Of a stretch of DNA of 64,000 nucleotides, positions 15,747 through 44,000 are shown one piece after another. Numbering within the stretch: position 1 is the first letter of the stretch; each line of letters begins with the position of its first letter. The translations under genes were made by a program, and so were the position numbers. The notes under the pieces were generated by a model. The model did no database searches. It worked only from the letters and a program-made list of their open reading frames with translations, and had not been told where the DNA came from. This DNA is from an uncultured Flavobacteriales bacterium (GTDB lineage: Bacteria; Bacteroidota; Bacteroidia; Flavobacteriales_D; CAJJDF01): contig CALLII010000025.1 in NCBI GenBank assembly GCA_938009745.1, positions 586-64,585 of the forward strand, given 5' to 3'.

Positions 15747-17363
15747 ATGCACTTTATGACTAACAAAATTAACTTGTGGCAATCTTTTTTGCCTCTTGTA
15801 ATTCTTATTTCTTTATTAGCTTATAATATTCTTGAAAAAGAATCTGAATGGTTTGGAACATATTCAAATCAATATATTTTATTAACGGCTGGCTTTGTAG
15901 CTCTTATAATAGGTTTTTTTCTTAAAGTAAGAATAAGAAAGATTATTGCAGAAGTAATCGAAAATTTGAAGAGTGTTATTACTCCAATTTTAATTTTGAC
16001 TCTTGTAGGTGCTTTGGCAGGATCATGGTTAGTTAGCGGAATAATTCCAGCAATGGTTTATTACGGTCTTCAAATATTAAACCCAGATATATTTTTACCT
16101 GCTTGTGTTGTAATTTCAGCTATTATTTCTGTAGCAACTGGTAGCTCGTGGACAACAACTGCAACTGTTGGTATTGCTTTAATTGCTATAGGTTCGGCAA
16201 TGGGTATTTCAGTTGGAATGATTGCAGGTGCTGTAATTTCGGGAGCTTATTTTGGAGATAAAATGTCACCTTTAAGTGATACTACTAATTTAGCGCCAGC
16301 TATGGCCGGTACAGATTTGTTTACTCATATTAGGTACATGTCTTATACCACAATTCCTAGTATTGTAATTACTCTTATTTTTTTTAGTATACTAAATTTT
16401 TCAATTGATGCTGCTGGTAATACCGATTCTTCATTAATTAGTGAAACCATAAAATCTACTTTCAATATTACACCCTGGTTATTCTTAGTTCCTTTACTAG
16501 TAGTAATACTAATTATTTTTAAAGTTAAGCCAGTTTTCTCTCTCCTTTCTGGGATTGGGTTAGCTATAATTTTCTCTGTAATTTTTCAACCTCAAGTATT
16601 ATCAAAAATATCGGATAATAGTTTTAAATCTATATCTCAGGCTATTATTACGGATGTTGAAGTGCCTTTTTCTAACGAAAAGTATCTAGCTAAATTTAAT
16701 TCTACCGAACTAAAACAATTAAAAGATTTAGAGTACACTAAATTAATTTTTATTGAAGACGATTTAAAAGCAACTTTTAATTCTGATTCTTTAATAAATA
16801 AATTTAATACATTAAACATTCCTGTAAATAAGATTGATAATTTAAATGATATTATTACTCTTAAGAGACTAAAAAAACTAATGAAATCTGATGGTATTCT
16901 GGGAATGAAATGGACTATTTTTCTAATTCTTTCTGCAATGGTATTTGGAGGAATTATGGATGGAATAGGAGCTTTATCCAAAATCACGTCTGAATTATTG
17001 AAAATTTCAACCACAATTTTTGGTTTATTTGCAAGTACGGTAGCAAGTTGTCTTGGTTTAAATGCTATTGCATCTGACCAATACTTAGCTATTGTTATTC
17101 CTGGTAAAATGTTCCGAAAAGCATACGAAGATAGAGGGTTGGCTCCTGAGAACTTAAGTAGAACTCTGGAAGATTCAGGAACGGTAACATCAGTTTTAGT
17201 TCCATGGAATACCTGTGGAGCGTATCAATCTCAAGTTTTAGGAGTAGGAGTAGGTGAATTTTTTATTTATGCAGTTTTCAATTGGCTAAGCCCTTTTGTA
17301 ACCTTATTCTTCGCTTACTTCAGAATTAAAATAAAAATGATTGGAGATCAGTCTATCAAATAA
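15747..17363 (+). CDS. nhaC: Na+/H+ antiporter, NhaC family, with a central hydrophilic insertion
   Basis: Multi-TM protein. GSSWTTTATVGIALIAIG, GAYFGDKMSPLSDTTNLA and LEDSGTVTSVLVPWNTCGAY are NhaC signatures. The start may instead be the ATG at 15756 (MTNK). Confidence 0.8.
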   Translation: MHFMTNKINLWQSFLPLVILISLLAYNILEKESEWFGTYSNQYILLTAGFVALIIGFFLKVRIRKIIAEVIENLKSVITPILILTLVGALAGSWLVSGIIPAMVYYGLQILNPDIFLPACVVISAIISVATGSSWTTTATVGIALIAIGSAMGISVGMIAGAVISGAYFGDKMSPLSDTTNLAPAMAGTDLFTHIRYMSYTTIPSIVITLIFFSILNFSIDAAGNTDSSLISETIKSTFNITPWLFLVPLLVVILIIFKVKPVFSLLSGIGLAIIFSVIFQPQVLSKISDNSFKSISQAIITDVEVPFSNEKYLAKFNSTELKQLKDLEYTKLIFIEDDLKATFNSDSLINKFNTLNIPVNKIDNLNDIITLKRLKKLMKSDGILGMKWTIFLILSAMVFGGIMDGIGALSKITSELLKISTTIFGLFASTVASCLGLNAIASDQYLAIVIPGKMFRKAYEDRGLAPENLSRTLEDSGTVTSVLVPWNTCGAYQSQVLGVGVGEFFIYAVFNWLSPFVTLFFAYFRIKIKMIGDQSIK

Positions 17364-18931
17364 AATCCTTCAGTCTTTTTTCCTTTAGCAAGTCTAATTG
17401 CTTTGTTGTAATTAAAGAACTCCCATTCTTCGTACGATCCATTTTGATATTCTATCCAAAGACTTTCTTCTGTAGCTGAATAAACAAAATATTCATATTC
17501 CATTGACTGCTTTTCTACTATTTGTGATTCAAGAACTGCCTGACGTACATACTTGTAATCAAACTCTTTACTTGTAATTTTTACTCCTTTGTTATTTGCA
17601 AAAAGCACTATGAATTCACTCTGTTTAGTTTCTTTGTTTTTTTTGTGATAAGCTCCAAAAACATAAGGTTGGTTGTTTTTATAAGTGAATCTAAAGCTTT
17701 CAAAACCATTTTTCATTTCATCAATAAGAGTATCCTTATCGTTATAAACAAAAAACAGCTCGTTCACTACTTTGTAATTCCAATTGTTAGTTGTATCGGT
17801 CAAAGTTCTGTTATTTACAGAAACAGCATCTTGCACACCAAAAAACATAGGGTCTGTTGGGATTTTTAATCCATTAAGTGAAACTAAATAACAGTCATAG
17901 TATCCTCCAATAATTCCTTTGTATTTTACAAAATCAAAAAAATCAGAATTCATGGCTCTAAAAGTGTCACTCTCTATATATAAATAGGGTAATGAGCCAA
18001 GAGGATAGTTCACACTTACTGTATCGGTATGGTAAACTCCAGGATTAGATTGAGGATTTAATCCAGAGCTGAAAGGAAGATAAAAATTTAGGTAGGCTTT
18101 ATCATAGTTAAAAATAACGTTACCGTATTTTCTGTGTGTATACATGGAAATTAAAGGGTAATTAAAGTCAAACTTACAATGGGTAAAGAGTGAATAAAAA
18201 TCTCCTTTTTTCTTTAGAAATAACGAAGCAAAATGTGTGTTGTTACTATTTAATAAATTTATTCTTTTATCAATTAGCTCATATTTACCAGCAAAGTATG
18301 AGAAATTGATACTTGTTTTGTATTCTTCAATTCGTTTTTTAAAGTTTTCGTTCAGTTGTTTTCTTTGTTCAGGATCCACTACGTTTTTATAAATAGAATC
18401 GAGCTTAGAAATGCTATCAGTAAACTTAAAATCAGCTAATGATCTTAAGTAAGTTTGTGAGTAAACCACTGAATCAAACCCAAAGAAAAAAGCATACCCA
18501 TTCTTATCAAAAAGGCCTTGAGGCAATGAAAAAAAACGAACCATATTACTTGAATCATTGTTATAGGTGTAATAACAAGTGTCTCTAAACTCATCTTTAG
18601 TAATTACAAAAGTAGTATCGGAAATTAGTTCATATTGGCAAACTATTTTTTTACTTGTAGAATTAGAGTTAAGAAAAACTCTTATGTTTTTTAATTCTTC
18701 TGGTTTGTAATTAAAATGAACGGTACATTGGTCTTTTTCAAAAAGAATTGTACCGCATTCCTGGGTTCTTAAGTCAAATAGTGAAAGTGTCTTGCCTAGT
18801 ATGTTTTTATCAGTTTTTCTTACTTTGATAGTTCCTTTTGGAACTTGTCCAAATACATTGCTAAACCCAAATGAAAGAGTAGTTACAAGTAAAAAAGTAA
18901 TATATAATTTAAAATTAATCAGCAATTGCAA
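17348..18931 (-). CDS. Hypothetical secreted protein, paralog C of the ECF-sigma operon
   Basis: 527 aa. Signal peptide, then GTIKVRK directly after the predicted cleavage site. Rich in Tyr/Phe/Asn/Lys. Overlaps the upstream gene by 17 nt. Confidence 0.6.
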   Translation of the reverse strand: MQLLINFKLYITFLLVTTLSFGFSNVFGQVPKGTIKVRKTDKNILGKTLSLFDLRTQECGTILFEKDQCTVHFNYKPEELKNIRVFLNSNSTSKKIVCQYELISDTTFVITKDEFRDTCYYTYNNDSSNMVRFFSLPQGLFDKNGYAFFFGFDSVVYSQTYLRSLADFKFTDSISKLDSIYKNVVDPEQRKQLNENFKKRIEEYKTSINFSYFAGKYELIDKRINLLNSNNTHFASLFLKKKGDFYSLFTHCKFDFNYPLISMYTHRKYGNVIFNYDKAYLNFYLPFSSGLNPQSNPGVYHTDTVSVNYPLGSLPYLYIESDTFRAMNSDFFDFVKYKGIIGGYYDCYLVSLNGLKIPTDPMFFGVQDAVSVNNRTLTDTTNNWNYKVVNELFFVYNDKDTLIDEMKNGFESFRFTYKNNQPYVFGAYHKKNKETKQSEFIVLFANNKGVKITSKEFDYKYVRQAVLESQIVEKQSMEYEYFVYSATEESLWIEYQNGSYEEWEFFNYNKAIRLAKGKKTEGFYLID

Positions 18932-19925
18932 GTCCGTAATGTGAAGAGGAGTTCTTCTTTAATATATAATTTCTCGACTGAAAATTAGTAGGTTCCTTTC
19001 TTAAATAGAAGTTGTAGCCTCTTCTTTGGTACCTGAATCTTATTTTGTTTTTTCTTCGAGCCACTCTTCCTCTTTCAAACTGCTTTGTAGGGGAGTTTAA
19101 GATAAAAAGTGAATCTTTAGTTACTTTGAAATTACAATAATATTTCAACTTATAGTTTTGAATAATAGTCACTTTGTTTACCAAAAAGTTTTCGAACTTA
19201 AAAAACATGCTATACCTATTTTTAGCTATTTGGGAAGTTGATTGAAAATACCCGAAAGGCATATTTCTTCTAAAATGAGCTTCCATGTTTCCAACTAACG
19301 TTTGAAACAAACAATAGAAATAATCGGAATTGTTCCTGCATACTACATTCACGTTAAAAAGATTTCTTATTAGTTGTATTGTATCAAATTCCGAATAAAA
19401 AGTATAGTTTGAATAATCTAAAGTATCACCAGAAATAAGAGTGCTATCGACCACAATCCTTTGTGAATTAATAGATTTTCCAGTTTCTTTATTCCAAATT
19501 ACAGCATAAGTTTTATTAAATTTATTAAGCCTTTTGGTAGCAATCTGTTGCCTAATTTCATACCAAGTAGAAAACACTTTTGTTTTCCTTTTTGAGACTA
19601 ACCTATTAATTTTTCTCCAAAATTTATCAGGGTTGTTTTTGGCTAATTTTTTCATTTTAGCAGATATTCTATGTCCAAAAACATGAATTCTATCTCGATC
19701 AAAAAAAATATTTTCGTGCCATGACCCCATTAAGTTGTCATTATTATCAAAAGGGAGTATGGTTTCTATACCTCCCTGAAATAAATCTAAAGTATCAGTC
19801 TCTACCTGATTAAAAAAACTTGTGTCGTATCCTAGTTTTCTAATTTTTAGCACATTATTACCCTTCTGAGCCATTCCCAAAAGAGAACAGAATAAGATGA
19901 TAAGTAAATTAGCTAATAGTTTCAT
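18915..19925 (-). CDS. Hypothetical secreted basic protein, paralog B of the ECF-sigma operon
   Basis: 336 aa. Signal peptide, then NVLKIRK. Shares several blocks with the 19932-20858 product (see findings). Confidence 0.6.
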   Translation of the reverse strand: MKLLANLLIILFCSLLGMAQKGNNVLKIRKLGYDTSFFNQVETDTLDLFQGGIETILPFDNNDNLMGSWHENIFFDRDRIHVFGHRISAKMKKLAKNNPDKFWRKINRLVSKRKTKVFSTWYEIRQQIATKRLNKFNKTYAVIWNKETGKSINSQRIVVDSTLISGDTLDYSNYTFYSEFDTIQLIRNLFNVNVVCRNNSDYFYCLFQTLVGNMEAHFRRNMPFGYFQSTSQIAKNRYSMFFKFENFLVNKVTIIQNYKLKYYCNFKVTKDSLFILNSPTKQFERGRVARRKNKIRFRYQRRGYNFYLRKEPTNFQSRNYILKKNSSSHYGLAIAD

Positions 19926-19931
19926 AATGGT

Positions 19932-20858
19932 TTATTGTCTCAAGTAATCGTAATTGGCGTTTCGAATTTTAAATCGTAATCTAGTTTTTTTTGTATTAAA
20001 CTTCCCTTTTTTAAAATAGGCGATTGGAGGATTTTCTATCACTATTTTTTTTCCTTTTATGGTATAATTACAGATATATTCTTCTCCTGTAGTAGTAACT
20101 ATCCTTACTTGGTTTTTAGTGTATTGTTTTAAATCAAATTGAAATTCATAACCAACACCATTTATTACTTTAGGACACTTTAAGTTCGATACCAAAAAAT
20201 CATTGTTTGTAGTGTCAACAATTTTCCTGTGAATTTTTTCTTTTATAGCATCAGTGGAAGAACTTCTATTTCCAGTGTTCCACAAACCTGATGTAATTGT
20301 GTCGTCAAGTAATGTCACATTTAAATAGGTATCAATTTTTGTTTTACTAGTTTTTGTGCCTTGTATTTTCTCCTCTTTAAGGAACATAACTACAGGTGAA
20401 TCTTTTCTCTTAAGCTCATAAACTTTAGAGTCGTAGTAATATTCTCTATATATCGAATCTGTTATCTTTCTTGGGATTTTCAGCTTTACATAGTCAAGAG
20501 CTCCCCTCTTTTGCATCCTTCTTATTTTAGCAAAAAACCTTCTAGAATCCGATCGTTTATATTTCTTCTTAAGCTTTTCAGGCAAGGCTTCATTAAATAC
20601 ATACATCCTGCTACCTGATAATAAAACATTGTCATTTAAAAATCCATACAACTTAGGAAGAGTATGTTCTTTACCTTTATAAAGCCTAGCTTTGGTAGTC
20701 GAGTCTACTTTTTTTATTACAGTAATTATTGTATCGAATTCTACGTATTTCCTTACCACAATAACCCCGCGATTCATTGCAAGGTTATTGGAATCTAATT
20801 GTTGACCAAAATTTGAGAAAGCACAGGTCAAAAAGATTATGGTGGCAAGGGTTTTCAT
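19932..20858 (-). CDS. Hypothetical secreted basic protein, paralog A of the ECF-sigma operon
   Basis: 308 aa. Signal peptide, then GVIVVRK. 3-nt gap from the upstream gene. Confidence 0.6.
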   Translation of the reverse strand: MKTLATIIFLTCAFSNFGQQLDSNNLAMNRGVIVVRKYVEFDTIITVIKKVDSTTKARLYKGKEHTLPKLYGFLNDNVLLSGSRMYVFNEALPEKLKKKYKRSDSRRFFAKIRRMQKRGALDYVKLKIPRKITDSIYREYYYDSKVYELKRKDSPVVMFLKEEKIQGTKTSKTKIDTYLNVTLLDDTITSGLWNTGNRSSSTDAIKEKIHRKIVDTTNNDFLVSNLKCPKVINGVGYEFQFDLKQYTKNQVRIVTTTGEEYICNYTIKGKKIVIENPPIAYFKKGKFNTKKTRLRFKIRNANYDYLRQ

Positions 20859-20861
20859 AGT

Positions 20862-22559
20862 TTATCCTCCTATTATTTCACGTATTTCTGAAGTTGTTTT
20901 TCCTTTAATATCTACAACCTTCATTTTAAAAGTATGGGCTTCTTGTCCTTTTTCAATTTCTTTAAAATCTTCTGTGTCTGCAACAGCAATCATGCCATCT
21001 AGAGTAATTCCCCATAATAAATTGTTTCGTTTAGGGTTAAAAGGCAATCTACCTATTCTTGAAGCATCTAATGGAAAACAAGCATTTCTAGTTTTCTCTA
21101 CTAAGTCTAATTTAGTAAACTCAATAGTTTCGCCAGTTTCCTCATCTTCATAATTAGTCAAAACTATCATTCCTTCTGGGTAAGGAATAGGGGAGTCGCA
21201 GTTCCATGTTCCAAATCTGTTGATGTTAAATATTCTTTTTAATTCATCCCTTGCAGCTGCTTGGAACTTCATTTTACTTCTCATTGCAGCCACTCTTCTT
21301 TCGTAAGCTTCTTGCTCTTTTTTATATCGTTCTTTTATTTTAGATAGATTTATTTCAGCTTGTTTTTCTTCTTCTTTTTTAGCTGTTAGTTTTGTGCTGT
21401 AATCTGTAAACCTTGAGTCAAATTCTTTTTTGGCTTCATCATAGTCTTTGCCATCCAATACAGGAATTACTTTTATTTCTTCTTTTCTCTCTCCCTTTTT
21501 CAATTGAACTATGTATGAGTTATTTTTCTCTAATAATTCAACTCCATTCCAAGTAACAGAGTAAGTATCTTCTGGCATTTCTGATTTATCTACTACTTCA
21601 AATATGGTTCCTGCGTATACTACCAATTCTGGAAACTCAGTTTTCTTTACATCAATTGTAAAGTTTTTCTTTTCTGGATTTGCCTTCAATGGTTTTCTAG
21701 GAGATTCTTTTTTCAAAGTTTTAATCTCTTTTTTAATAACCGCAACAACTTCTTCAGCTTCAACTATTTTTATTTCCTTTTCTTCTACGTCAATTACTTT
21801 GGCTATGTTTTCTTCAATAGGTTCATCTTTTGTTGAGCCTTGTTCAGTTTTAGGATTATCTATAGAATCTTTTCCTTCATAACTCCATTTTTCCTTTTCT
21901 TCATCTAAGTAATACAAGTTAAATTTCGGGTCTGGATTTTTGGAATGCATACAAATTCTGAAGTTTTTATCTGGAACAATTTTCAGTCTCTTTCCATCTT
22001 GGTATCCTCTTATCTCCATCATTCCAGCAGATTCGAAAACTTGTTCTTTTCCAGCAGAATCATAATCCATTGGTATTCCACTAAGGAAAATCTCTGTTTG
22101 ATTGTGGAATTCACGGTATTGTACTTCTACTTTTCCTGTTACAATTTTTCCGTCTTCATCCATAAATGCACCTTCTGGGATAGTAATTTCAGTCCCTGTG
22201 TGGTGTTTTATTTTACCTCCATTATCTGCATCTACATAATACGATTCGTTAGGAATGTCAGCCTCAGGAATAGGTGGATTTACAAAAACTGATTTAGACA
22301 CTGTATCGGTAACTTGTGCAACTAGTGTTTCTGATTCTTGAACTAATTGTTCAGTATCTGGTTTTGTTCCAATATAAATACCAGCAGCAATTGCAATGGC
22401 AGCAATTCCTCCTGCAAACCAACCTGTGCTTTTGCCAGTTGGCTTTGGTGCAACAGAACCTGCTCCGCCAACTTTGCTAGCCAAAGATCCAAAGTCTTTA
22501 GTTGCATTTATTTCCTCTTTGGCAAGTGGTTTTCTGTCTATGTTAATGTTTCTTTTCAT
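20862..22559 (-). CDS. Single-pass membrane protein, candidate anti-sigma/sensor partner of the adjacent ECF sigma factor
   Basis: 565 aa. A ~45-aa cytoplasmic N-terminus, a TM helix (WFAGGIAAIAIAAGIYIG), a large extracytoplasmic part with a K/E-rich coiled segment, and a Cys-containing C-terminal domain. The call rests on position directly downstream of the sigma gene. No ZAS motif was seen. Confidence 0.55.
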   Translation of the reverse strand: MKRNINIDRKPLAKEEINATKDFGSLASKVGGAGSVAPKPTGKSTGWFAGGIAAIAIAAGIYIGTKPDTEQLVQESETLVAQVTDTVSKSVFVNPPIPEADIPNESYYVDADNGGKIKHHTGTEITIPEGAFMDEDGKIVTGKVEVQYREFHNQTEIFLSGIPMDYDSAGKEQVFESAGMMEIRGYQDGKRLKIVPDKNFRICMHSKNPDPKFNLYYLDEEKEKWSYEGKDSIDNPKTEQGSTKDEPIEENIAKVIDVEEKEIKIVEAEEVVAVIKKEIKTLKKESPRKPLKANPEKKNFTIDVKKTEFPELVVYAGTIFEVVDKSEMPEDTYSVTWNGVELLEKNNSYIVQLKKGERKEEIKVIPVLDGKDYDEAKKEFDSRFTDYSTKLTAKKEEEKQAEINLSKIKERYKKEQEAYERRVAAMRSKMKFQAAARDELKRIFNINRFGTWNCDSPIPYPEGMIVLTNYEDEETGETIEFTKLDLVEKTRNACFPLDASRIGRLPFNPKRNNLLWGITLDGMIAVADTEDFKEIEKGQEAHTFKMKVVDIKGKTTSEIREIIGG

Positions 22560-22627
22560 TTTATTATTGGTGTTTACTTTGTCTTTTTATTTGGCTATAA
22601 CACTTTGTAATTTAGTGTGTATTCAAT

Positions 22628-23197
22628 TTATTTCTGGTTGTTTTGTAATTTCTTTATTACTCTATGAGTTTTAACTTTAGCATTATTCTCAGTCATATCA
22701 AGTATTTCGCCTATTTCTTTAAAGCTTCTTTGTTCAAAATAGCGCATTTCAACTAATTCCAATTCTTGATCATTTAATTCGGATAAAGCGGCAATTAACT
22801 CTTCGTTACCAAGGGCAATAGGAATATCAATATCTTCTGACATATTTGCCAGAGATTCAGTTTCTACATTTATAGTTGGCGATTTTGATTGGTTCTTTAA
22901 AAACTGGTAGGTTTCGCTTTTTGCAATTCGGTACAACCATGAGCTGAATTTTAGCCCCATAAATTTGTACTTTTTTATGTTAGTCATTGCCTTAAGAAAA
23001 ACTTGTGCAGTAACATCTGCAGCATCATCTTTGGAATCCATTCTTTGGTAAGCGTATCGAAAAATTGCTTCGTAATTAGCGTCATATAGTTTTTCGAAAG
23101 CGCTCAAGTCTTGCTGAGCAGCTTTAATCCAAGCCTCCTCAAGTGAATCCACTTTAGCTTGTGGTGGTATGTGTTGGGATATACTCATTGAGTTCAT
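22628..23197 (-). CDS. ECF-type sigma-70 family RNA polymerase sigma factor
   Basis: Region 2: FEKLYDANYEAIFRYAYQRM...DVTAQVFLKA...FSSWLYRIA. Region 4: ELVEMRYFEQRSFKEIGEILDMTENNAKVKTHRVIKKL. Confidence 0.85.
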   Translation of the reverse strand: MNSMSISQHIPPQAKVDSLEEAWIKAAQQDLSAFEKLYDANYEAIFRYAYQRMDSKDDAADVTAQVFLKAMTNIKKYKFMGLKFSSWLYRIAKSETYQFLKNQSKSPTINVETESLANMSEDIDIPIALGNEELIAALSELNDQELELVEMRYFEQRSFKEIGEILDMTENNAKVKTHRVIKKLQNNQK

Positions 23198-23221
23198 ATT
23201 GAGATAGATTAGGAAAGTTAT

Positions 23222-23287
23222 AAAAAAAGAGTAGAAACTGGGCGATACCGCAGTATCTTTTAATCACTTGCCTTTGCTCCCAGTTTC
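23222..23287 (-). terminator. Structured element: 9-bp stem with a nested 5-bp hairpin, followed by a T run. Either a terminator for the upstream genes or a leader/attenuator of the sigma operon
   Basis: Minus strand reads GAAACTGGG-(36 nt containing GATAC-TGCG-GTATC)-CCCAGTTTC-TACTC-TTTTTTT. It ends ~25 nt before the sigma ATG. Confidence 0.4.
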
Positions 23288-23429
23288 CCTCTTCACTATC
23301 TATAACGCGAAGTAATGGATTGGTTACATAAATTTGATCAGTAATTTTAAGATTCCAATATTGAATTTTAATTAACTCTTTATTTTATGAAGGTAGAAGG
23401 GGGTTGTTTGACTAAATAAATATCACAAT

Positions 23430-35045: not shown

Positions 35046-38000
35046 GTGAAAAAAACTATTTTAAATATCTCTTTTTTGCTTTTTGTATTTCTTTTTGGAA
35101 TACAGTTAAATAGCTTTGGCTCCCATTTTATGGGGTCCACATTATCCTACACTTGCACTGGTCCTAACCAATACCTAGTTACCTTAAAAGCTTATCGTGA
35201 TTGTGGAGGGATAACAATGCCACCTTCTTTTAGTGTTGCTTATAATGGTTGTGGAAGTTCTGGTAGTGTAACTGTGGCTTTACAAAGTTCTTCAGATATT
35301 TCTCCACTTTGTCCAACTTTAACCAGTATTTGCTCTGGCGGTTCATACCCATTTGGTTTAGAAGAACATATCTATACAGGTACAGTTACCGTCCCAGCTA
35401 ATTGTGCTAGTGTGATTTTTTCCACCTCTTCTTGTTGTAGAAACGGAAGTATTACAAATATTTCAATTCCTGGTTCTATAGGATTTTATACCAGTTCATT
35501 TCTAAATAATAATTTAACTACTTGTAATAGCTCCCCTACGTTTGCATCAGAACCAGCCCTATATACATGTTTAAATCAGTCTGTTGTTTTTCAGCAATTA
35601 GCAACCGATTCAGATGGCGATTCCTTAGTGTATTCTTTGGTAAATTGCCTACAATCTCCAGCAACAAGTGTTCCTTATGCTCCAGGATTTAGTGGAGTAA
35701 ATCCATTGACTACTCCTGTAACAATTGATCCTAATACAGGTGATTTATCTTTCACTGCTACTGCAATTCAAGTTGCATCTGTAAGTGTTTTAGTAGAAGA
35801 ATATAGGGCGGGAATTAAGGTTGGAGAAATTGTTCGCGATATGCAATTTACTATTCTCAATTGTTCCAATACTCTGCCGCAACTATCTGGTATTAATGGA
35901 GCTTCAGGAATATATTCTGTTAATACTTGCGAAGGTGCACCTATCTGTTTTAACATAAACGCAACTGACATAAATGCTGTTGATAATCTTTCAATGTTTT
36001 ATTCAGGAAATATTCCTGGAGCTACATTTACACAAACTGGAACCGGAAATAATCGTGTTGGTACTTTTTGTTGGACACCACCAATCGGTTCAGCAGGAAC
36101 TTATGTGTTTTCATTAGGAGTATTTGATGATGCTTGTCCAATTATTGGTCAAAATTCTAGATCATATATAGTAAATGTAAACTCAAATCCCAATACACCT
36201 ATTTCTGTAAGTGCAGATGTAGGAATTTGTTCGGGTTCAACCACAACACTTTTAGCTACTAATGTTACCCCTAACATTTCTTGGTCGCCTTCATTAGCAC
36301 TTTCAACAACTTCAGGAACTAGCACAAATGCATCTCCAACTTCAACAACAACCTACACTGCAACAGCTATTTACCCTGATGGCTGTAGTTCAAGTGATGA
36401 TGTTACTGTAACGGTTAATCCTGATCCAGTTGCCAATATTAGTCCTTCTTCTGCTAGTGTTTGCCCAGGAGGAAATATAACACTTACAGGTACTACAAAT
36501 TCTACAGGAATGACTTTCCAATGGTTCAATCCTTCAATGGGAGGTTTAGGCTCGGGAACGGTATCAGGAACTTCATCTAGTATTGTAGTATCAGTTCCTG
36601 CTGCTTCAGGTACTTATAATTATACTCTCCGAATTACTAATCCATCTACAGGATGTTCTTCTGATGCGATAGTTCCTTTATCAGTAGGAGCTCCTCCTAC
36701 TTTAGCTTCTTGTATTAATATATATGTTACACCTACGGGGTCATCTGCTGCTGCTGGTACACAGGCTAATCCTACAAATTTGGTTGAAGCACTAAGTCGA
36801 AGTGCTTGTCAAGGAGCAGTGATAAAAATGGCTATAGGAACTTATAATTTTAATAATGCAATCAATCTTCAAAGTTTTGTTACGATAGAGGGTGGTTTTG
36901 ATCAATTTTTTGGATGGAGAAAAACTAGCCAGCCAGGCGCAACTACAATCAATCGAACAACAGCAAGTCCAGAAGGATCAACAAATGCTCAAAGACTTGT
37001 AGCTTTTTATGGAAATAGTGCAACAGGTTTTAGATTACAAGATATTACTGTTAGAACTTCAGCAGCAAATCAGCCAGGTATGTCTACTTATGGTTTGCAT
37101 TTAACCTCTTGTTCTGATTATGATATTGTAAGATGTCAAATTCAGCCGGGAAATGCTGCTGCAGGTAGAAATGGAACAAATGGAACAAATGGAAACATAG
37201 GAAGGAATGGAGGGCGTGGATCAGCAGGTGACGGTAATGATTATGATGATTCTGGAGGAGGAGGAGGAGGAGGAGGAGGGGGAGGAACAACTGTTGGTAA
37301 TGCAGGTACTAATGCAAGCGGTAATTATAATTCGGCTAATAACTGCACTATAGCTGGTGGTAATGGTGGTGGTGGTGGTGCAACTGCTGGTAATGGTGGT
37401 AATGGTAGAGGCGATTCAAATGGTTGTGGTTGTTGTAATGCAGGTTCACAAGGTTATACAGGTGGTTCATCTTCAAATTCTCGAAGTGGTGGTGGTGGTG
37501 GTGGTGGTGCAAATGGTGGTTGCGAAGATGAAAATGGTGGCCGTGGTGGAAACGGAGGAGGTGTTTTAAGTGTCTATGGGTCAAATCTTGGTGGTGGTAA
37601 TGGTGGTAATGATGGAGGGAATGGTGGTGGTTATCCTGGAAGTAACGGTACTGCTGGTTCAAATGGTACTCTTGGATCTAATGGTGGTCTTGGTTCTAAT
37701 GGTTCGCATGTTGGGGGATTCTGGTCTCCAGGTAGTCAAGGGGGCAGTGGCAGTGATGGTAGTGGTGGTAGTGGTGGTGCAGGTGGCGGTGGTGGCGGTG
37801 GACAAGACTGTTTCTTTTGTTCTGATGGATGTGGTTCTGGAGGAGGAGGTGGTGGTGGTGGTGGCCAAGGAGGCCAAGGTGGTACTGGTGGTCGAGGAGG
37901 AGGATCCTCCTACGGGGTATATCTTTTCTCAAATGGTGCAAATGGAATAATTAATCAAAGTTTTGTAGATGCAGGGAATGCAGGTGGAGGTGGTACTCCA

Positions 38001-41000
38001 GGTACAGGCGGTACAGGTGGTGCAGGTGGTCTTGGTGGTAGTGGAAGCCCTTATACTGGTGGTGGAGAAGTTGGAGCAGGTGGAAATGGTGGACGAGGCG
38101 GAAATGGTGGATTAGGTCGAAGTGGTGGTGCTGGTCGTGCTGGTCAAACTATTGATGTTTACAGAGTAAGTGGTGCTTTTTTAACAACTCAGGTTACAAC
38201 ATTCAATCTTGCTGCCCAAACTACAATTACAGCTAGTAATGTAAATTGCACCAATACCAATGTAAATTATACAACAACATCTGCAAGTACGTGGGATTTT
38301 GACAGAGTCACCAATTATGCAACTCCTGCTACAGCAGGATCATCAAGTAACACTAATACTCAATATTCTCAAATAGCTCGTTATACTTTATCCAGAGGAG
38401 CTCATATTTATGAAGGATTTCATAATATTTCTTTTGATGGTTCATTAGCACCAGAAATAACAACTAATGCAGATTCAATTGGAGTCGATACTTTTCAGCT
38501 TTGCCAAGGAGATTTTGCAACTTTTAGCAGTGTGTATTCAGGATTAACTTATATATGGAATTTTAATGGAGCAATTACAAACCCAGGAACAACAGTTCAA
38601 AATACTCCTTCAATACAATTTAACACTCCTGGCTTTTATACTATTACACTTAGAACAACATCAGATTGTTGTGGACTATCTCCTACCAAAACAATTTATC
38701 TATATGTAGATGCATTACCAACAGTTACTGGGTCTGGTGCGGGTGCCATTTGTGAAGGTGAGAATAGAACTTTAACATTGACTGGTTTAGCAGTTAGTGA
38801 TAGTGTGATTTGGACACCCACTACTAATATTGTTTCTTCTACAACCAACACTATTACAGTTAGCCCATCAACAACTACAACTTATACTGCTTCTATTTAT
38901 ACTAAAACAATAGCGAGTGGTGTTACAAGATTAAGTTGTCCTATTTCTCGTCCACTTACAGTAACTGTGAGTCCAATCCCAACTATTGCTTTGACATTAA
39001 CGCAACCAAATTGCGGTAATAATGGACAAATTGTTGCCAATATTACTTCTGGGGGAGGGCTTTATAATTTTTCATGGTCTAATGGAGTATTTAGCTTTAA
39101 TTCCACCTCTTCTACAAATGGAAGTATTGGTGTAGGGTCATATTCTGTTACAGCAACTAACACTATTACAGGTTGTTCAGTTACGGACACTGTTTTCTTA
39201 TTCCCAGCTCCTGGATCACCTATCGTTTCAGTTCAAAATACTACCCCTGCAACTTGTGGCCTTAATAATGGTACTGCCAATGTTCTTGCATCAGGCGGAA
39301 CCGGACCTTATACTTATACTTGGAGTACTGGCGGTACAGGGACTAGTCGCACAAATTTAGCTGCTGCTACTTATTGTGTAACAGCTACTGATAATCTTGG
39401 ATGTCCTACTACAATATGTTTTGATATAACAACTCCAGATACTTTAAAAGTATCTCTATTATCTAGCAGTAACTTGATTTGTGCCAGTGATAGCAATGGT
39501 ACTGCTAAGGTAGAAGCAACAGGAGGTCAACCTATCTATACCTATCTTTGGTCTAATGGAGAAACAGGAGATTCTGCTTCTTCATTACCCGTAGGTACTT
39601 CTTATGTTATTGTTTCTGATTCCTCAGGATGTACTGATTCTCTTTCTTTTGTTTTGTTGGCTACCGGTCCTTCTACGAGTTCTACTCAAACTATAACAGT
39701 TTGTGATAGCTTGATTTCGCCAAGTGGAAAAATTTGGCGAACAGCAGGGACCTATTTTGATACAATCCCAAATTCAACTGGTTGTGATAGTTTATTAACT
39801 ATTACAGTTTCAATTTCTCCTGTAATCAACACGATTGATTCTATTACTGCTTGTGATTCGTTAACTTGGATAAATGGAATTACATATTACGCTAACAATA
39901 CAGCTGCAAAAGATACATTGTCTTCAATCCAAGGATGTGATTCTATTGTGAGTTTGAGTTTAATTATTAATAATACTTCAAGCTCAACTCAAACCGTTAC
40001 AGTTTGTGATAGCTTATTGTCTCCTAGCGGAAAAACTTGGAATACAACTGGCACTTATCTCGATACCATTATGAATGCTAGTGGTTGTGATAGCTTAATC
40101 ACTTTTAATCTTACAGTAAACTTTACATCAAGTTCTACTCAAACTTTAACTGTTTGTGATAGTTTAATATCTCCAAGTGGAAAAATTTGGTCAACATCCA
40201 ATACTTATTTAGATACAATTTTAAATGCAACTGGTTGTGACAGTCTAATGACATTTAATCTGACAGTAAACTACACGACTAGTTCAACTCAAACATTAAC
40301 AGTTTGTGATAGTTTAGTATCTCCAAGCGGAAAAATTTGGTCAACAACTGGCAATTATTTTGATACTATATTAAAAGCTAATGGGTGTGATAGTTTACTT
40401 ACATTTAACTTGACAATAAATACTACTTCAAGCTCAACTCAAACCCTTATAGTTTGTGATAGTTTAATATCTCCAAGTGGAAAAACTTGGAATACAACTG
40501 GCAATTATCTCGATACCATTATGAATGCTGGTGGTTGCGATAGTTTAATGACTTTTAATCTTACAGTAAACTTTACATCAAGTTCTACTCAAACAATAAC
40601 AGTTTGTGATAGTTTAATTTCTCCAAGCGGAAAAATTTGGTCAACAACAGGAACCTATCTTGATACAATTTCTAATTCATCAGGATGTGATTCATTACTT
40701 ACAATAAACCTTACAGTTTCCTCTACAATAAATAGTATAGATTCAGTTTTAGTATGTGATTCTCTTATTTGGATAGATGGAGTTACTTATTACACAAATA
40801 ATAATACAGCAAAAGACACATTGCCATCTTATCAAGGGTGTGACTCAATTATTACCTTGAATCTGACAGTAAACTATACTACAAGTTCTACTCAAGCAAC
40901 AACAATATGCGATAGCATGATCTCTCCAAGTGGTAAAATTTGGTCAACATCTGGAATATATCTAGACACGATAACAAATTCAAGTGGGTGTGATAGTTTA

Positions 41001-44000
41001 ATGACATTTAATTTGATAGTAAATAATACTTCAAGCTCAACTCAAACTTTAACAGTTTGTGATAGTTTGTTATCTCCAAGTGGAAAAACTTGGAATTCGA
41101 CAGGAACCTATTTGGATACTATTTTAAATGCAGCTGGCTGCGACAGTCTAATGACTTTTAATCTAACAGTAAACTTTAATTCCAGTTCCACTCAAACTAT
41201 TACTGTTTGTGACAGCTTTGTTTCGCCATCAGGAAAAACTTGGAATAATTCTGGAATGTACTTAGATACAATATTAAATACTTCGGGTTGTGACAGTTTA
41301 ATGACTTTTAATCTAACAGTAAATTATACCATTAGCATTACACTGACAGACACCTCATGTGACCAGTTTTTATGGCGTTCAAATAATCTAACTTCTTCAG
41401 GCACTTATTATGATACTGCAACTACAGGTTTTTGTGACAGTATTTTTACTTTAAACCTTACACTATTTAATTCAGTAGATAATTGGCAAAGTTTTATTGG
41501 GTGTGACAGTCTGCTTTTACCAAACGGAAATACAGTATTTTTCAGTGGTACATACAGAGATACTTTTTCAACAGTTAATGGATGTGATAGTATTCACAGG
41601 TATCAAGTAACCATGAGATCTACAATAATTACTAATGTTATCAATAGTTCTTGTGATAGTTTTACCAGTCCAAACGGACAAGTTTGGACTACTTCAGGAA
41701 TCTATGCAGATACTTTTAATACTGCGGGTGTTTGTGATAGCTTAGTCATTTATAATTTAACCATTAATTATACTACTTCCTCAATCCAAAACCTTACAGT
41801 TTGTGATAGTTTAATTTCTCCTTCTGGGAAATTTTGGAATAGCTCTGGAATATACTTGGACACAATAACAAGCAACTCAGGTTGTGATAGTTTAATGACT
41901 TTTAATCTTACTGTAAATTACACTTCAACTTCTTCAATATCCTTGACAGTTTGCGATAGTTTATTCTCTCCATCAGGGAAAATATGGAGATCAAATGGAG
42001 TCTATCTAGATACAATTTCTAATGTTTCTGGATGTGATAGTTTAATGACTTTTAATTTAACATTGAGTAATTACGCTCAAATTCCTTCAACCTTAAATGC
42101 TTGTGATAGTATTTCTTGGAGAGGAAGTTGGTATTCTAGTACTGGAATTTATAATGATTCTGTAATAGTTCCGGGTTGTGATACCGTTTTTATCTTAAAT
42201 CTTACTATTAATAACTCTAGTTCATCTGCTCAAACGATAACAGTTTGCGATAGTTTAGTGTCTCCAACTGGAAAAACTTGGAATACAACAGGAACTTATA
42301 GCGACACAATAGCCAATGCAATTGGTTGCGATAGTTTAATGACATTTAATTTGACGGTAAATTATACAACTAGTTCGTCTCAAACAATTACCGTTTGTGA
42401 TAGTATAGTCTCACCAAGTGGTAAAACTTGGAATACCACTGGAATTTACCTGGATACACTAGTAAAACCAAATGGATGCGATAGTCTTATGACGTTTAAT
42501 CTTACAGTTAACTATACTTCAAGCTCTTCTCAAATGATATCAGTTTGCGATAGTTTTGTTTCTCCAAGTGGAAAAATTTGGACTGCTACTGGTAATTATT
42601 TGGATACAATTCTAAATGCTTCAGGTTGCGATAGCTTATTAAGTATTAACCTTACAATAGCTCCAATTGCAAGAATTCCTCTAACAATAACAATTTGCGA
42701 TAGTGTTGTGTGGAGAGGTGTTACTTATACCACTACTGGAAATTATTCTGATACGCTATTAGTTGCAGGATGCGACACAATTTTTGACTTAAGCTTAACA
42801 GTAAATTACACTACAACTTCAAGTCAAACACTTACGGTTTGCGATAGTCTATTGTCTCCAAGCGGAAAAACTTGGAATACAACTGGTACTTATTTTGATA
42901 CAATTTTAAACTCAACTGGATGTGATAGTTTGATGACATTCAATCTTACAATAAACTACACAACAAGTTCTACTCAATTCTTAACAGTATGTGATAGTCT
43001 ATTATCGCCAAGTGGAAAAACATGGAATACTACAGGAACTTATTTAGATACAATAACTAAAACTGACGGATGTGATAGCTTAATAACATTTAATCTTACT
43101 GTGAATTCCACAACAAATTCATCCCAATCTATTACAACCTGCGATAGTTTATTATCACCAAGTGGAAAAATTTGGAGAACATCAGGAATCTATTTAGATA
43201 CTATATTAAACTCAAATGGTTGTGATAGTTTAATGACATTTAATTTAATTATAAACTTTACAACAAGTTCTACTCAAACTTTATCAGTTTGTGATAGCCT
43301 ATTGTCTCCAAGCGGAAAAACTTGGAATACAACAGGAATTTATTTGGATACAATTTTAAACTCATCTGGATGTGACAGTTTAATGACATTCAATCTTACA
43401 ATAAACTACACAACAAGTTCTACTCAAACCTTAACAGTATGCGATAGTCTATTGTCGCCAAGTGGAAAAATATGGAGTACCACAGGAACTTATTTAGATA
43501 CAATAACTAAAACTGATGGATGTGATAGTCTGATGACATTTAATCTTACTGTCAATTCTACAACAAATTCATCCCAATCTATTACAACCTGCGATAGTTT
43601 ATTATCACCAAGTGGAAAAATTTGGAGAACATCAGGAATCTATTTAGATACTATATTAAACTCAATTGGTTGTGATAGTTTAATGACATTTAATTTAACC
43701 ATTAGTGGGTTTATTCCTATTACAACTTCTGTTACAGCTTGTGATAGCTTAACTTGGAGAGGAGTAACTTATACTTCTTCTGGTACATATAATGATACTG
43801 TTTTAATACCTGGGTGTGATACCATTTATACATTGTCATTAGTAATAAATAATAGTTCAACCTCTATAATTAATCCAATATCATGTGGTCCGTACTCATC
43901 ACCAAGTGGAAAATCATATTCTACCTCAGGGAACTATTTAGATACTATTTCTAACACAATAGGTTGTGACAGTATAATTACCATTAACCTTATTGTAGAT

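Follow-up and report, generated by a model that had tools for sequence, protein, structure and literature searches.

How can exported proteins of unrelated kinds come to stand behind one extracytoplasmic function (ECF) sigma factor, and what might tie them together once they have left the cytoplasm? The question is raised by a five-gene operon in a 64-kb stretch of DNA (64,000 nucleotides, hereafter the window) from an uncultured Flavobacteriales bacterium, in which an ECF sigma factor gene is followed by genes for a 565-aa single-pass membrane protein and for three proteins with signal peptides. Bacteroidota genomes encode dozens of ECF sigma factors each, with signals and outputs that are mostly unknown. 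From a comparison of this operon with related loci carrying homologs of the membrane protein (labelled L followed by a number), we tentatively read it, at not quite an even chance, as an autoregulated ECF sigma/anti-sigma module of an undescribed, Bacteroidota-wide type, in which a short tag near the mature N terminus docks exported cargo to the membrane protein. The five genes are as follows.

22628-23197, minus strand: ECF sigma factor gene, 189 aa
20862-22559, minus strand: gene for the single-pass membrane protein, 565 aa
19932-20858, minus strand: gene for a tagged exported protein, 308 aa
18915-19925, minus strand: gene for a tagged exported protein, 336 aa
17348-18931, minus strand: gene for a tagged exported protein, 527 aa, TTG start

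When coordinates were re-derived, the five minus-strand open reading frames (ORFs) lay as a preliminary description of this DNA had placed them, with gaps of 68, 3 and 6 nt followed by a 17-nt overlap, and no terminator-like sites were found between the five genes. The view of the locus as a tightly packed ECF-sigma operon without a described function is supported. As had also been proposed, its first gene encodes an ECF sigma factor. The 189-aa protein matches Sigma70_r2 (E 1.9e-12) and Sigma70_r4_2 (E 7.2e-11) in Pfam, scores 91 bits against TIGR02937 in NCBIfam, where the cutoff is 42.9, and is established as an ECF (group 4) sigma-70 factor that consists of sigma-2 and sigma-4 domains only. 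It scores below the cutoffs of the named subgroups TIGR02985 (58 vs 126.4), sigma_PG0214 (56.6 vs 130) and TIGR02952 (101 vs 206).

Is the operon peculiar to this genome? Bacteroidota contain hundreds of homologs of the membrane protein, each annotated as hypothetical and lacking a Pfam domain, and the family occurs in at least 598 species of a one-genome-per-species collection. Among the matches listed, the carriers belong to Flavobacteriales, Parvicellaceae, Cryomorphaceae, Chitinophagales and Sphingobacteriales, and the closest is a Flavobacteriales metagenome-assembled genome (MAG; locus L006) with 94% identity to the 565-aa protein. Clustering of all neighboring ORFs left just two universal components, the sigma factor, found in 79 loci, and the membrane protein, found in 82, and a sigma ortholog lies directly upstream of the membrane-protein gene in every full-length locus, with a median gap of ~66 nt. 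What follows this pair differs from locus to locus: proteins of 330 and 529 aa in L001, of 168, 350 and 509 aa in L002, three 336-type proteins and one of 519 aa in L008, a single 233-aa protein in L004, and four small proteins of 127–172 aa in L009. The families found downstream in the window are themselves narrow. A word-index search with the 308-aa protein returned 2 clusters, a profile of the 308/336 family reached 16 representative clusters among 1.84 billion proteins, and the 527 family comprises 15 clusters; what is conserved is therefore a combination of sigma factor, membrane protein and any tagged protein. Conservation of the cluster outside this genome thus holds for the sigma and membrane-protein core, in the at least 598 species given above.

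If the downstream proteins are so variable, what do they have in common? The preliminary description had noted three signal peptides followed almost immediately by a related motif, and all three motifs are present, 6–13 residues past signal peptides that end just before Gln (SNFG before QQ in the 308-aa protein, GMA before QK in the 336-aa protein).

20748-20768, minus strand: tag GVIVVRK, residues 31-37 of the 308-aa protein; R and K invariant or nearly so in the family alignment
19836-19856, minus strand: tag NVLKIRK, residues 24-30 of the 336-aa protein; K30 invariant, R29 nearly so
18815-18835, minus strand: tag GTIKVRK, residues 33-39 of the 527-aa protein; Q29, G33, I35, R38 and K39 invariant in 13 family members

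A signal peptide that ends before Gln follows the signal-peptidase-I "Q-rule" of Bacteroidetes (PMC5837995). Over 138 instances in 73 loci, the tag has the consensus [R/H/S]-G-T-I-K-[VI]-x-K-x-K and begins 3–10 residues past a Gln at +1. To count it, one fixed regular expression was applied to the signal-peptide ORFs of 82 related loci. The tag was present in 64 of 91 such ORFs that start at most 1 kb downstream on the same strand, against a background of ~3% (2 of 58 at over 3 kb upstream, 7 of 201 on the other strand), and most of the seeming exceptions downstream bear a shifted variant, DTFxVK. In both families of the window, 308/336 and 527, the tag is the most conserved part of the protein. 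The proteins that carry it are exported and probably periplasmic.

One may see in this motif the leftover of common ancestry, as the preliminary description did when it took the three proteins for divergent paralogs, and the downstream proteins could on this account be very divergent members of one secreted effector family, with the motif an ancestral remnant that forms the first strand of a shared fold. Part of the account stands. The 308- and 336-aa proteins match over their full length in BLASTP (22% identity, E 1e-10), a match that covers the mid and C-terminal blocks said to be common to them, and by these comparisons they are true paralogs, with one to three tandem copies among close relatives. 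However, the 527-aa protein shows no BLASTP similarity to either, and when the 308/336 family (10 sequences) was aligned to the 527 family (13 sequences) with hhalign, just 29 columns aligned, comprising the signal peptide and the motif; on this evidence the 527-aa protein belongs to a separate family that has only the signal peptide and tag in common with the other two.

The wider set of tagged proteins, which span 107 to ~500 aa, also speaks against a single diverged fold. Each of the 10 small tagged proteins tested consists of a signal peptide, the tag and TonB_C (PF03544, E 4e-6 to 3.5e-19), a known independent fold, whereas the ~240-aa tagged proteins of Chitinophagales show a weak likeness to the Ig-like domains of GldM (GldM_3rd at cutoff, E 2e-5; weak in L086 too). 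The distance from the tag to the (M)PxFxGG entry motif of TonB_C varies between ~6 and 32 residues; the tag therefore lies outside the folded domain, which excludes it as the mere first strand of one diverged fold. The tag region of an AlphaFold2 (AF2) model of the 527-aa protein has a predicted local distance difference test score (pLDDT) of ~25–37, so that the tag is not confidently packed into the monomer. A further tagged family, of ~211 aa and present in 21 loci, matches no known family, and its tag seems to run on into a beta-hairpin, GTIKISKVKPDSIYIKA, a continuity that would suit an ancestral first strand. Taken with the presence of the tag on GldM-like Ig domains and on proteins of such different lengths, these comparisons make descent of all the downstream proteins from one effector family improbable. 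Instead of leftover homology, the tag is, throughout the phylum, a modular N-terminal extension on otherwise unrelated cargo that includes TonB_C, GldM-like Ig domains and orphan families.

The cargo of the window itself is of two sorts. The mature 308- and 336-aa proteins are highly basic, as had been said of all three (isoelectric points [pI] of 9.9 and 10.1, net charge ~+30 each), but the 527-aa protein, with a pI of 8.2 and a net charge of +3, is not; it contains 6 Cys. No domain had been recognized in any of them, and searches of Pfam and NCBIfam with the three proteins likewise returned no match. An AF2 model of the 527-aa protein, built from 13 homologs, is unusable (pLDDT 48), and Foldseek gave nothing significant for it, with a weak local similarity to lipocalin and NlpE-like folds at E of at least 0.1. 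Members of the 308/336 family diverge far more rapidly than the remainder of the operon: the 336-type protein shares 89% identity with its L006 ortholog and 41% with that of L001, a locus in which the membrane protein retains 62% and the sigma factor 72% identity. Within the window's clade the family has one to three copies per locus (three at L008:2554-5449), and in L006, the relative that is 94% identical in its membrane protein, the 308-aa ortholog is shortened to 290 aa (L006:10702-11574). The very basic 308/336 proteins might bind anionic envelope polymers.

Several familiar classes of envelope protein were considered for these products and rejected. Lipoproteins and type V pilins have a lipobox Cys at +1, and in the pilins an Arg/Lys-specific cleavage removes the first strand. 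Since there is no lipobox Cys at +1 and the signal peptides end in G or A before Q, the three window proteins are not lipoproteins or type V pilins. They lack a C-terminal sorting domain (PF18962 or CHU_C) and are thus not type IX secretion system (T9SS) cargo, and they have neither a C-terminal aromatic signal nor a match to a barrel family, which rules out outer-membrane barrels. Chaperone-usher pili were ruled out because no usher or chaperone gene lies nearby, and TonB-dependent transporters because no tagged protein matches Plug or TonB_dep_Rec.

What places the tagged proteins under the control of this sigma factor? Two elements precede the sigma gene of the window.

23301-23328, minus strand: candidate autoregulated ECF promoter TGTAACCAATCCATTACTTCGCGTTATA, with a -35-like GTAACC and a -10-like CGTTATA
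23221-23294, minus strand: leader hairpin and U-tract between the promoter and the sigma start codon, conserved in the window's clade

The promoter element occurs once in the window, where 0.01 occurrences would be expected by chance. A search for an AAC-N-CGT pattern found matches just in the window's clade. Enrichment of k-mers in the 200 nt upstream of sigma genes brought out TGTATCT, in 35 of 77 loci (12-fold), and CGTTATA, in 31–40 of 77 (7-fold over background), and from these a family-wide form emerged, TGTATCTTTT...CGTTATA. AAC and CGT cores are typical of ECF promoters. The two boxes, GTA[TA][CA][CT] and GTTA with 15 nt between them, precede the sigma gene in 38 of 77 loci, 37 of which have a spacing of exactly 15 nt; the background is 42 of 1540 random 200-nt segments (2.7%). 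Over 1.33 Mb of loci, 39 of 67 matches to the two-box element lie at the sigma gene.

The remaining full-consensus copies stand just before additional members of the tagged set, save one that lies ahead of the sigma-less membrane-protein gene of L072. One to four small genes encoding a signal peptide, tag and TonB_C lie just upstream of the sigma gene in six loci (L054:6455-8203, L081:7339-8176, L049:7614-8048, L053:7874-8299, L057:7799-8221 and L034:7960-8358). A full-consensus copy precedes these extra genes by 9–17 nt in L034, L049, L053 and L081 and by 176 nt in L057, and in L054 a near-consensus copy, GTATCTTTTAATTACTTTTACGATAT, is found ~15 nt before the first of them. There is thus good comparative evidence that the two-box element would be the promoter of this sigma factor and the tagged proteins its regulon, and we infer, with good support, that the operon is autoregulated and that the tagged proteins are its output.

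The leader forms a hairpin, GAAGAGGGAAACUGGG ... CCCAGUUUCUACUCUU, with a near-invariant 35-nt loop region followed by U7. It is specific to the window's clade and near-invariant in the window, L006, L001, L007 and L008 despite proteins at ~56–62% identity, and its presence moves the promoter from ~50 nt to ~130 nt before the ATG. Its minimum free energy is -28 kcal/mol (z = -2.98), one compensatory pair occurs among 4 sequences, and Rfam holds no match to it. The leader resembles an intrinsic terminator or attenuator, and a role in attenuation is possible.

If the operon is transcribed by its own sigma factor, how is the sigma factor restrained? The product of the second gene is the candidate, and it divides into three parts.

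22425-22559, minus strand: cytoplasmic N-terminal segment, residues 1-45, the putative sigma-binding part
22368-22424, minus strand: single transmembrane helix, residues 46-64, placed by the hydropathy maximum and an AF2 helix
20862-22367, minus strand: periplasmic part, from the AF2 model and alignment conservation

The N-terminal ~45 residues have a net charge of +5, and an acidic stretch follows the helix; the N terminus is therefore cytoplasmic and the bulk of the protein periplasmic. Because the first 45 residues contain 0 Cys and 0 His, they hold no zinc-binding anti-sigma (ZAS) motif. Hydropathy and composition thus bear out the single-pass topology, the ~45-aa cytoplasmic part and the lack of a ZAS motif noted in the preliminary description. 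Two short helices are modelled by AF2 in this segment, at residues 14-20 and 23-31, and the family alignment reveals a conserved motif, MKRKINIDR..EEI..KDF, in which I17 and F23 are invariant or nearly so.

Among the loci examined, three homologs are shortened at this end. Those of L036, L072 and L086 have just ~10–12 residues before the transmembrane helix, and they are exactly the three without an upstream sigma gene. A Fisher test of truncated N terminus against absence of the sigma gene gave p = 4e-5 (3/0 vs 1/79) with L082 counted as an exception; on re-inspection L082 carries a sigma gene, which makes the association perfect. This co-absence of the sigma gene and the ~45-residue N terminus points to the N terminus as the anti-sigma part. 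All three loci still have a tagged neighbor. L072 also retains the promoter motif ahead of its membrane-protein gene, which implies control by a sigma factor encoded elsewhere.

That a protein with so short a cytoplasmic part could act on a sigma factor is less unusual than the preliminary description supposed, since residues 1-40 of Bacteroides thetaiotaomicron Dma1, fused to glutathione S-transferase, suffice to pull down the cognate ECF21 sigma factor Das1, and its Bacteroides fragilis ortholog Reo behaves likewise (PMC10927553). The segment is not one of the recognized types. Class I anti-sigma domains (ASD/ZAS, RskA, zf-HC2) have ~80–90 residues and an optional HxxxCxxC, whereas here there are ~45 residues and no match in Pfam or NCBIfam; nor, as would be expected of FecR-type proteins, is there a FecR or DUF4974 domain or a TonB-dependent receptor conserved near the module. 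As had been suggested, the 565-aa protein very likely serves as an anti-sigma factor of a non-canonical type. We infer, again with good support, that its N-terminal 45 residues bind the sigma factor.

Could the 565-aa protein instead be purely structural, a periplasm-spanning protein of the TolA, TonB or GldM kind that works with the tagged proteins, while the sigma factor merely co-regulates them and is itself controlled by other means? No known anti-sigma domain was detected in it, the sigma-less versions with tagged neighbors indicate that the unit can work without an adjacent sigma gene, and its long helix and stacked beta domains, described below, would suit a spanning scaffold. We nevertheless regard this as very doubtful: the conserved cytoplasmic N terminus is perfectly associated with an adjacent sigma gene, the membrane-protein gene occupies the +1 position at the short median gap given above, and short N-terminal sigma-binding segments have precedent in Bacteroidota (PMC10927553). 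Scaffold and anti-sigma roles are, moreover, compatible, and in the reading that we prefer one protein has both.

The layout of the periplasmic part comes from prediction. In the AF2 model (mean pLDDT 79, with the folded domains above 85), a beta-sandwich at about residues 105-234 holds the most conserved block of the family, YREFHD..SGIPMxYDSAG..FESAGM, and residues 258-284 then form a helix, 319-368 a small beta domain, 370-437 a helix of 68 residues and 440-563 an alpha/beta domain. Searches of Pfam and NCBIfam with the protein gave no match, and neither did Pfam searches with 38 family members. A profile search of PDB sequences with the family returned solely a spurious match to bS21 (E 0.027), and a Foldseek comparison of the model with the PDB reached a best E of 0.05, to CnaB, pilin and transthyretin-like sandwiches, which is not significant. 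Profile and fold searches of the kind proposed earlier thus leave the 565-aa protein without a significant match in Pfam, NCBIfam or the PDB. One 648-aa homolog (P0051) has a precomputed match to PF18962, the T9SS C-terminal sorting domain, which is odd for a protein anchored in the inner membrane; the combination may be a fusion or assembly artefact.

How, then, might the parts work together? In the mechanism that we envision, the ~45-residue cytoplasmic N terminus of the 565-aa protein would hold the sigma factor at the inner membrane. Upon release, the sigma factor would transcribe its own operon from the TGTAACC-N-CGTTATA promoter, as the conservation of that element suggests. The remaining genes of the operon encode proteins exported through Sec and processed by signal peptidase I, with a basic, strand-like tag a few residues past the Gln at +1. 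Added as a beta-strand to the acidic part of the membrane protein in the periplasm, this tag would dock them there. The membrane protein would in this way serve both as anti-sigma factor and as a periplasm-spanning scaffold for interchangeable, lineage-specific heads, which in this genome would be two very basic paralogs and one Cys-containing 527-aa protein.

Docking is the step about which we are most reserved; we consider it possible, with the chances somewhat below even, that strand addition of the tag docks cargo to the membrane protein in its periplasmic part. We propose it because the membrane protein is the sole other universal exported component, because its pI of 5.3 contrasts with the basic tag, and because tagged neighbors are kept where the sigma gene is absent. 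Variation of the tag is also of interest here. Tags of the window's clade end in [IV]RK (336- and 527-type), those of Parvicellaceae read SGTITIxKE, and DTFxVK accompanies the shorter (520–555 aa) membrane proteins of Chitinophagales type. With membrane proteins clustered by their periplasmic part, tag type A is found in 12 of 13 assignable loci of the window's cluster and type B in 19 of 20 loci of the short cluster. Two MAGs hold two modules each (L038 and L062 in VBWE01; L073 and L045 in JAAFIA01), and each module has its own membrane-protein subfamily and its own tag flavor, DTFxVK in one and G[TV]IxVx[RK] in the other. Such module-specific flavor fits recognition of the tag by a partner that the module would encode.

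Several observations weigh against the docking module as a whole. The correlation between flavor and membrane-protein subfamily is confounded by co-inheritance in one operon. In the Foldseek comparison with the PDB, the fold of the membrane protein matches nothing suggestive of a strand-binding groove, and there is no confident structure for any of the three cargo proteins of the window. The promoter motif is found in just about half of the loci, Chitinophagales-type loci must use another variant, and the carriers of the family are nearly all uncultured MAGs.

The main alternative keeps the sigma factor, anti-sigma factor and regulon as we describe them, with the tag serving instead for sorting or processing by machinery that is encoded elsewhere. 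This could be a maturation protease, specific for Lys, with its cleavage site behind the tag, or a path to the outer membrane or surface; the tag might also be a TonB-box-like strand to which C-terminal domains of the TonB type, peptidoglycan or lipopolysaccharide would bind. The tag always ends in K or R near the mature N terminus; its Chitinophagales flavor, DT[FL]xVK(T), resembles the TonB-box consensus DTxxVTA, which is a lead; part of the cargo is itself a TonB_C domain; and a strand-binding fold is not recognizable in the membrane protein. A loosely tag-like N terminus also begins a small outer-membrane-barrel-like family that lies nearby in 16 loci. Against such a signal, no candidate machinery is conserved near the module, which has just two universal components, sigma factor and membrane protein, and the tag hardly occurs beyond the neighbors of the module, with ~3% of signal-peptide ORFs elsewhere in the loci carrying it. 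Flavors that are module-specific within one genome are also more easily explained by a receptor encoded in the module than by a shared machine. We think a sorting or processing signal unlikely.

If the tag does dock cargo, it may act as an address label. The strand would plug interchangeable periplasmic heads, among them TonB_C domains, Ig-like domains, basic orphans and perhaps small outer-membrane barrels, into an anti-sigma scaffold that spans the periplasm; the ECF sigma factor would be controlled by whether the heads are occupied or engaged, and pairs of tag and receptor would have diverged into orthogonal flavors found together in one cell. This is a speculative picture and on balance we doubt it, but if true the module would be a split, modular counterpart of the trans-envelope sensors of the TonB and Dma types.

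In 16 loci of Bacteroidia type (for example, L020:11887-12429, minus strand; L036:10732-11277; L060:13049-13612), a convergent gene for a ~181-aa protein of the barrel-like family just mentioned lies ~1.4 kb downstream of the module; the family is absent from the window's clade. Its members have the look of a small 8-stranded outer-membrane barrel, with alternating strands, a C-terminal ...GVNIGL/F and sub-threshold matches to OMP_b-brl, DUF5777 and FadL, and their loosely tag-like start reads QDS(T/S)MIRK or QDSIRIRK. Another neighbor, a ~510-aa membrane protein with a spermine/spermidine-synthase-like domain (PF01564), is encoded right after a single tagged gene in L004 (L004:9454-10986) and in 8 further loci, all of Bacteroidia type.

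In the window, the operon converges on a gene for an NhaC-type Na+/H+ antiporter (15747-17363, plus strand), the 3′ end of which overlaps that of the 527-aa gene by 16 nt (17348-17363); no terminator-like hairpin was found between the two. Further away, the product of a 3331-aa ORF (35046-45041, plus strand) has a signal peptide and, at its C terminus, the type IX secretion signal CHU_C; the organism therefore has a T9SS. The start of this ORF falls in a G+C-rich segment (0.43 at 36–38 kb, compared with ~0.32 elsewhere).

What would such a module mean for the study of envelope signaling? Neither Pfam, NCBIfam, Rfam nor the PDB yielded anything on the family of membrane proteins, on the tag or on the promoter, and a full-text literature search found just the classification of ECF sigma factors and the work on Dma proteins. 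In at least 598 species the module is defined by four parts, namely a membrane-protein family for which there is no model, a recognizable promoter, a rule for the tag, and cargo of unrelated kinds, TonB_C among them. Regulon members can be recognized by a plain rule: a signal peptide, Gln and then GTIKVxK. Docking by such a strand, if it occurs, would represent a new way to assemble envelope complexes, and would offer a compact, orthogonal tag/receptor pair of use as a tool. Even if there is no docking, the fact that the N-terminal segment and the sigma gene are lost together provides a definition, one that can be tested, of a new short anti-sigma domain.

How does the module compare with systems that are already known? 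The closest are the Dma proteins, whose defining features are a disordered linker and, at the C terminus, an outer-membrane beta-barrel of 8 strands, OMP_b-brl_2 (PMC10927553). Both are restricted to Bacteroidota and encoded right after an ECF sigma gene, and both combine a cytoplasmic N terminus of ~40–45 residues that lacks a ZAS or class I domain with a single transmembrane helix and a long extracytoplasmic part that could span the periplasm. However, the 565-aa family has folded periplasmic domains (sandwich, helix, alpha/beta) and no barrel, with OMP_b-brl_2 in 0 of 38 members, and is set apart by the very description of Dma; tag-bearing exported proteins have likewise not been reported for Dma operons. 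As modelled, the 565-aa protein is not a member of the Dma family. Should the ~181-aa family prove to be a true tagged barrel, the module would resemble a Dma protein that has been split.

A second comparison is with RseA-RseB, MucA-MucB and CnrY-CnrX, in which an anti-sigma factor is co-transcribed with a periplasmic partner that binds it; the cytoplasmic sigma-binding part of CnrY is a very short pair of helices. These systems also have one autoregulated operon for the ECF sigma factor, its single-pass anti-sigma factor and proteins of the periplasm, and the docking of periplasmic partners on the ectodomain of the anti-sigma factor is what we propose here. In contrast to them, the module described here bears no sequence or Pfam relationship to any of these proteins, and in place of one conserved partner it has many unrelated, lineage-specific partners that are united by the tag.

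For the tag itself, the nearest parallels are the TonB box and the donor strands of chaperone-usher systems, in which a short strand of 6–7 residues near the mature N terminus of diverse proteins is added to a beta-sheet of a partner. The tag is basic (K/R-rich), unlike canonical TonB boxes, and its cargo is without Plug, barrel or pilin families and without an usher or chaperone gene nearby. In common with them, it is a short, potentially strand-forming sequence near the mature N terminus of diverse cargo, part of which is TonB_C. As a sigma/anti-sigma module the system is of a known kind; it differs from its relatives by a new anti-sigma family and by an unprecedented regulon that is marked by a tag and swaps its cargo.

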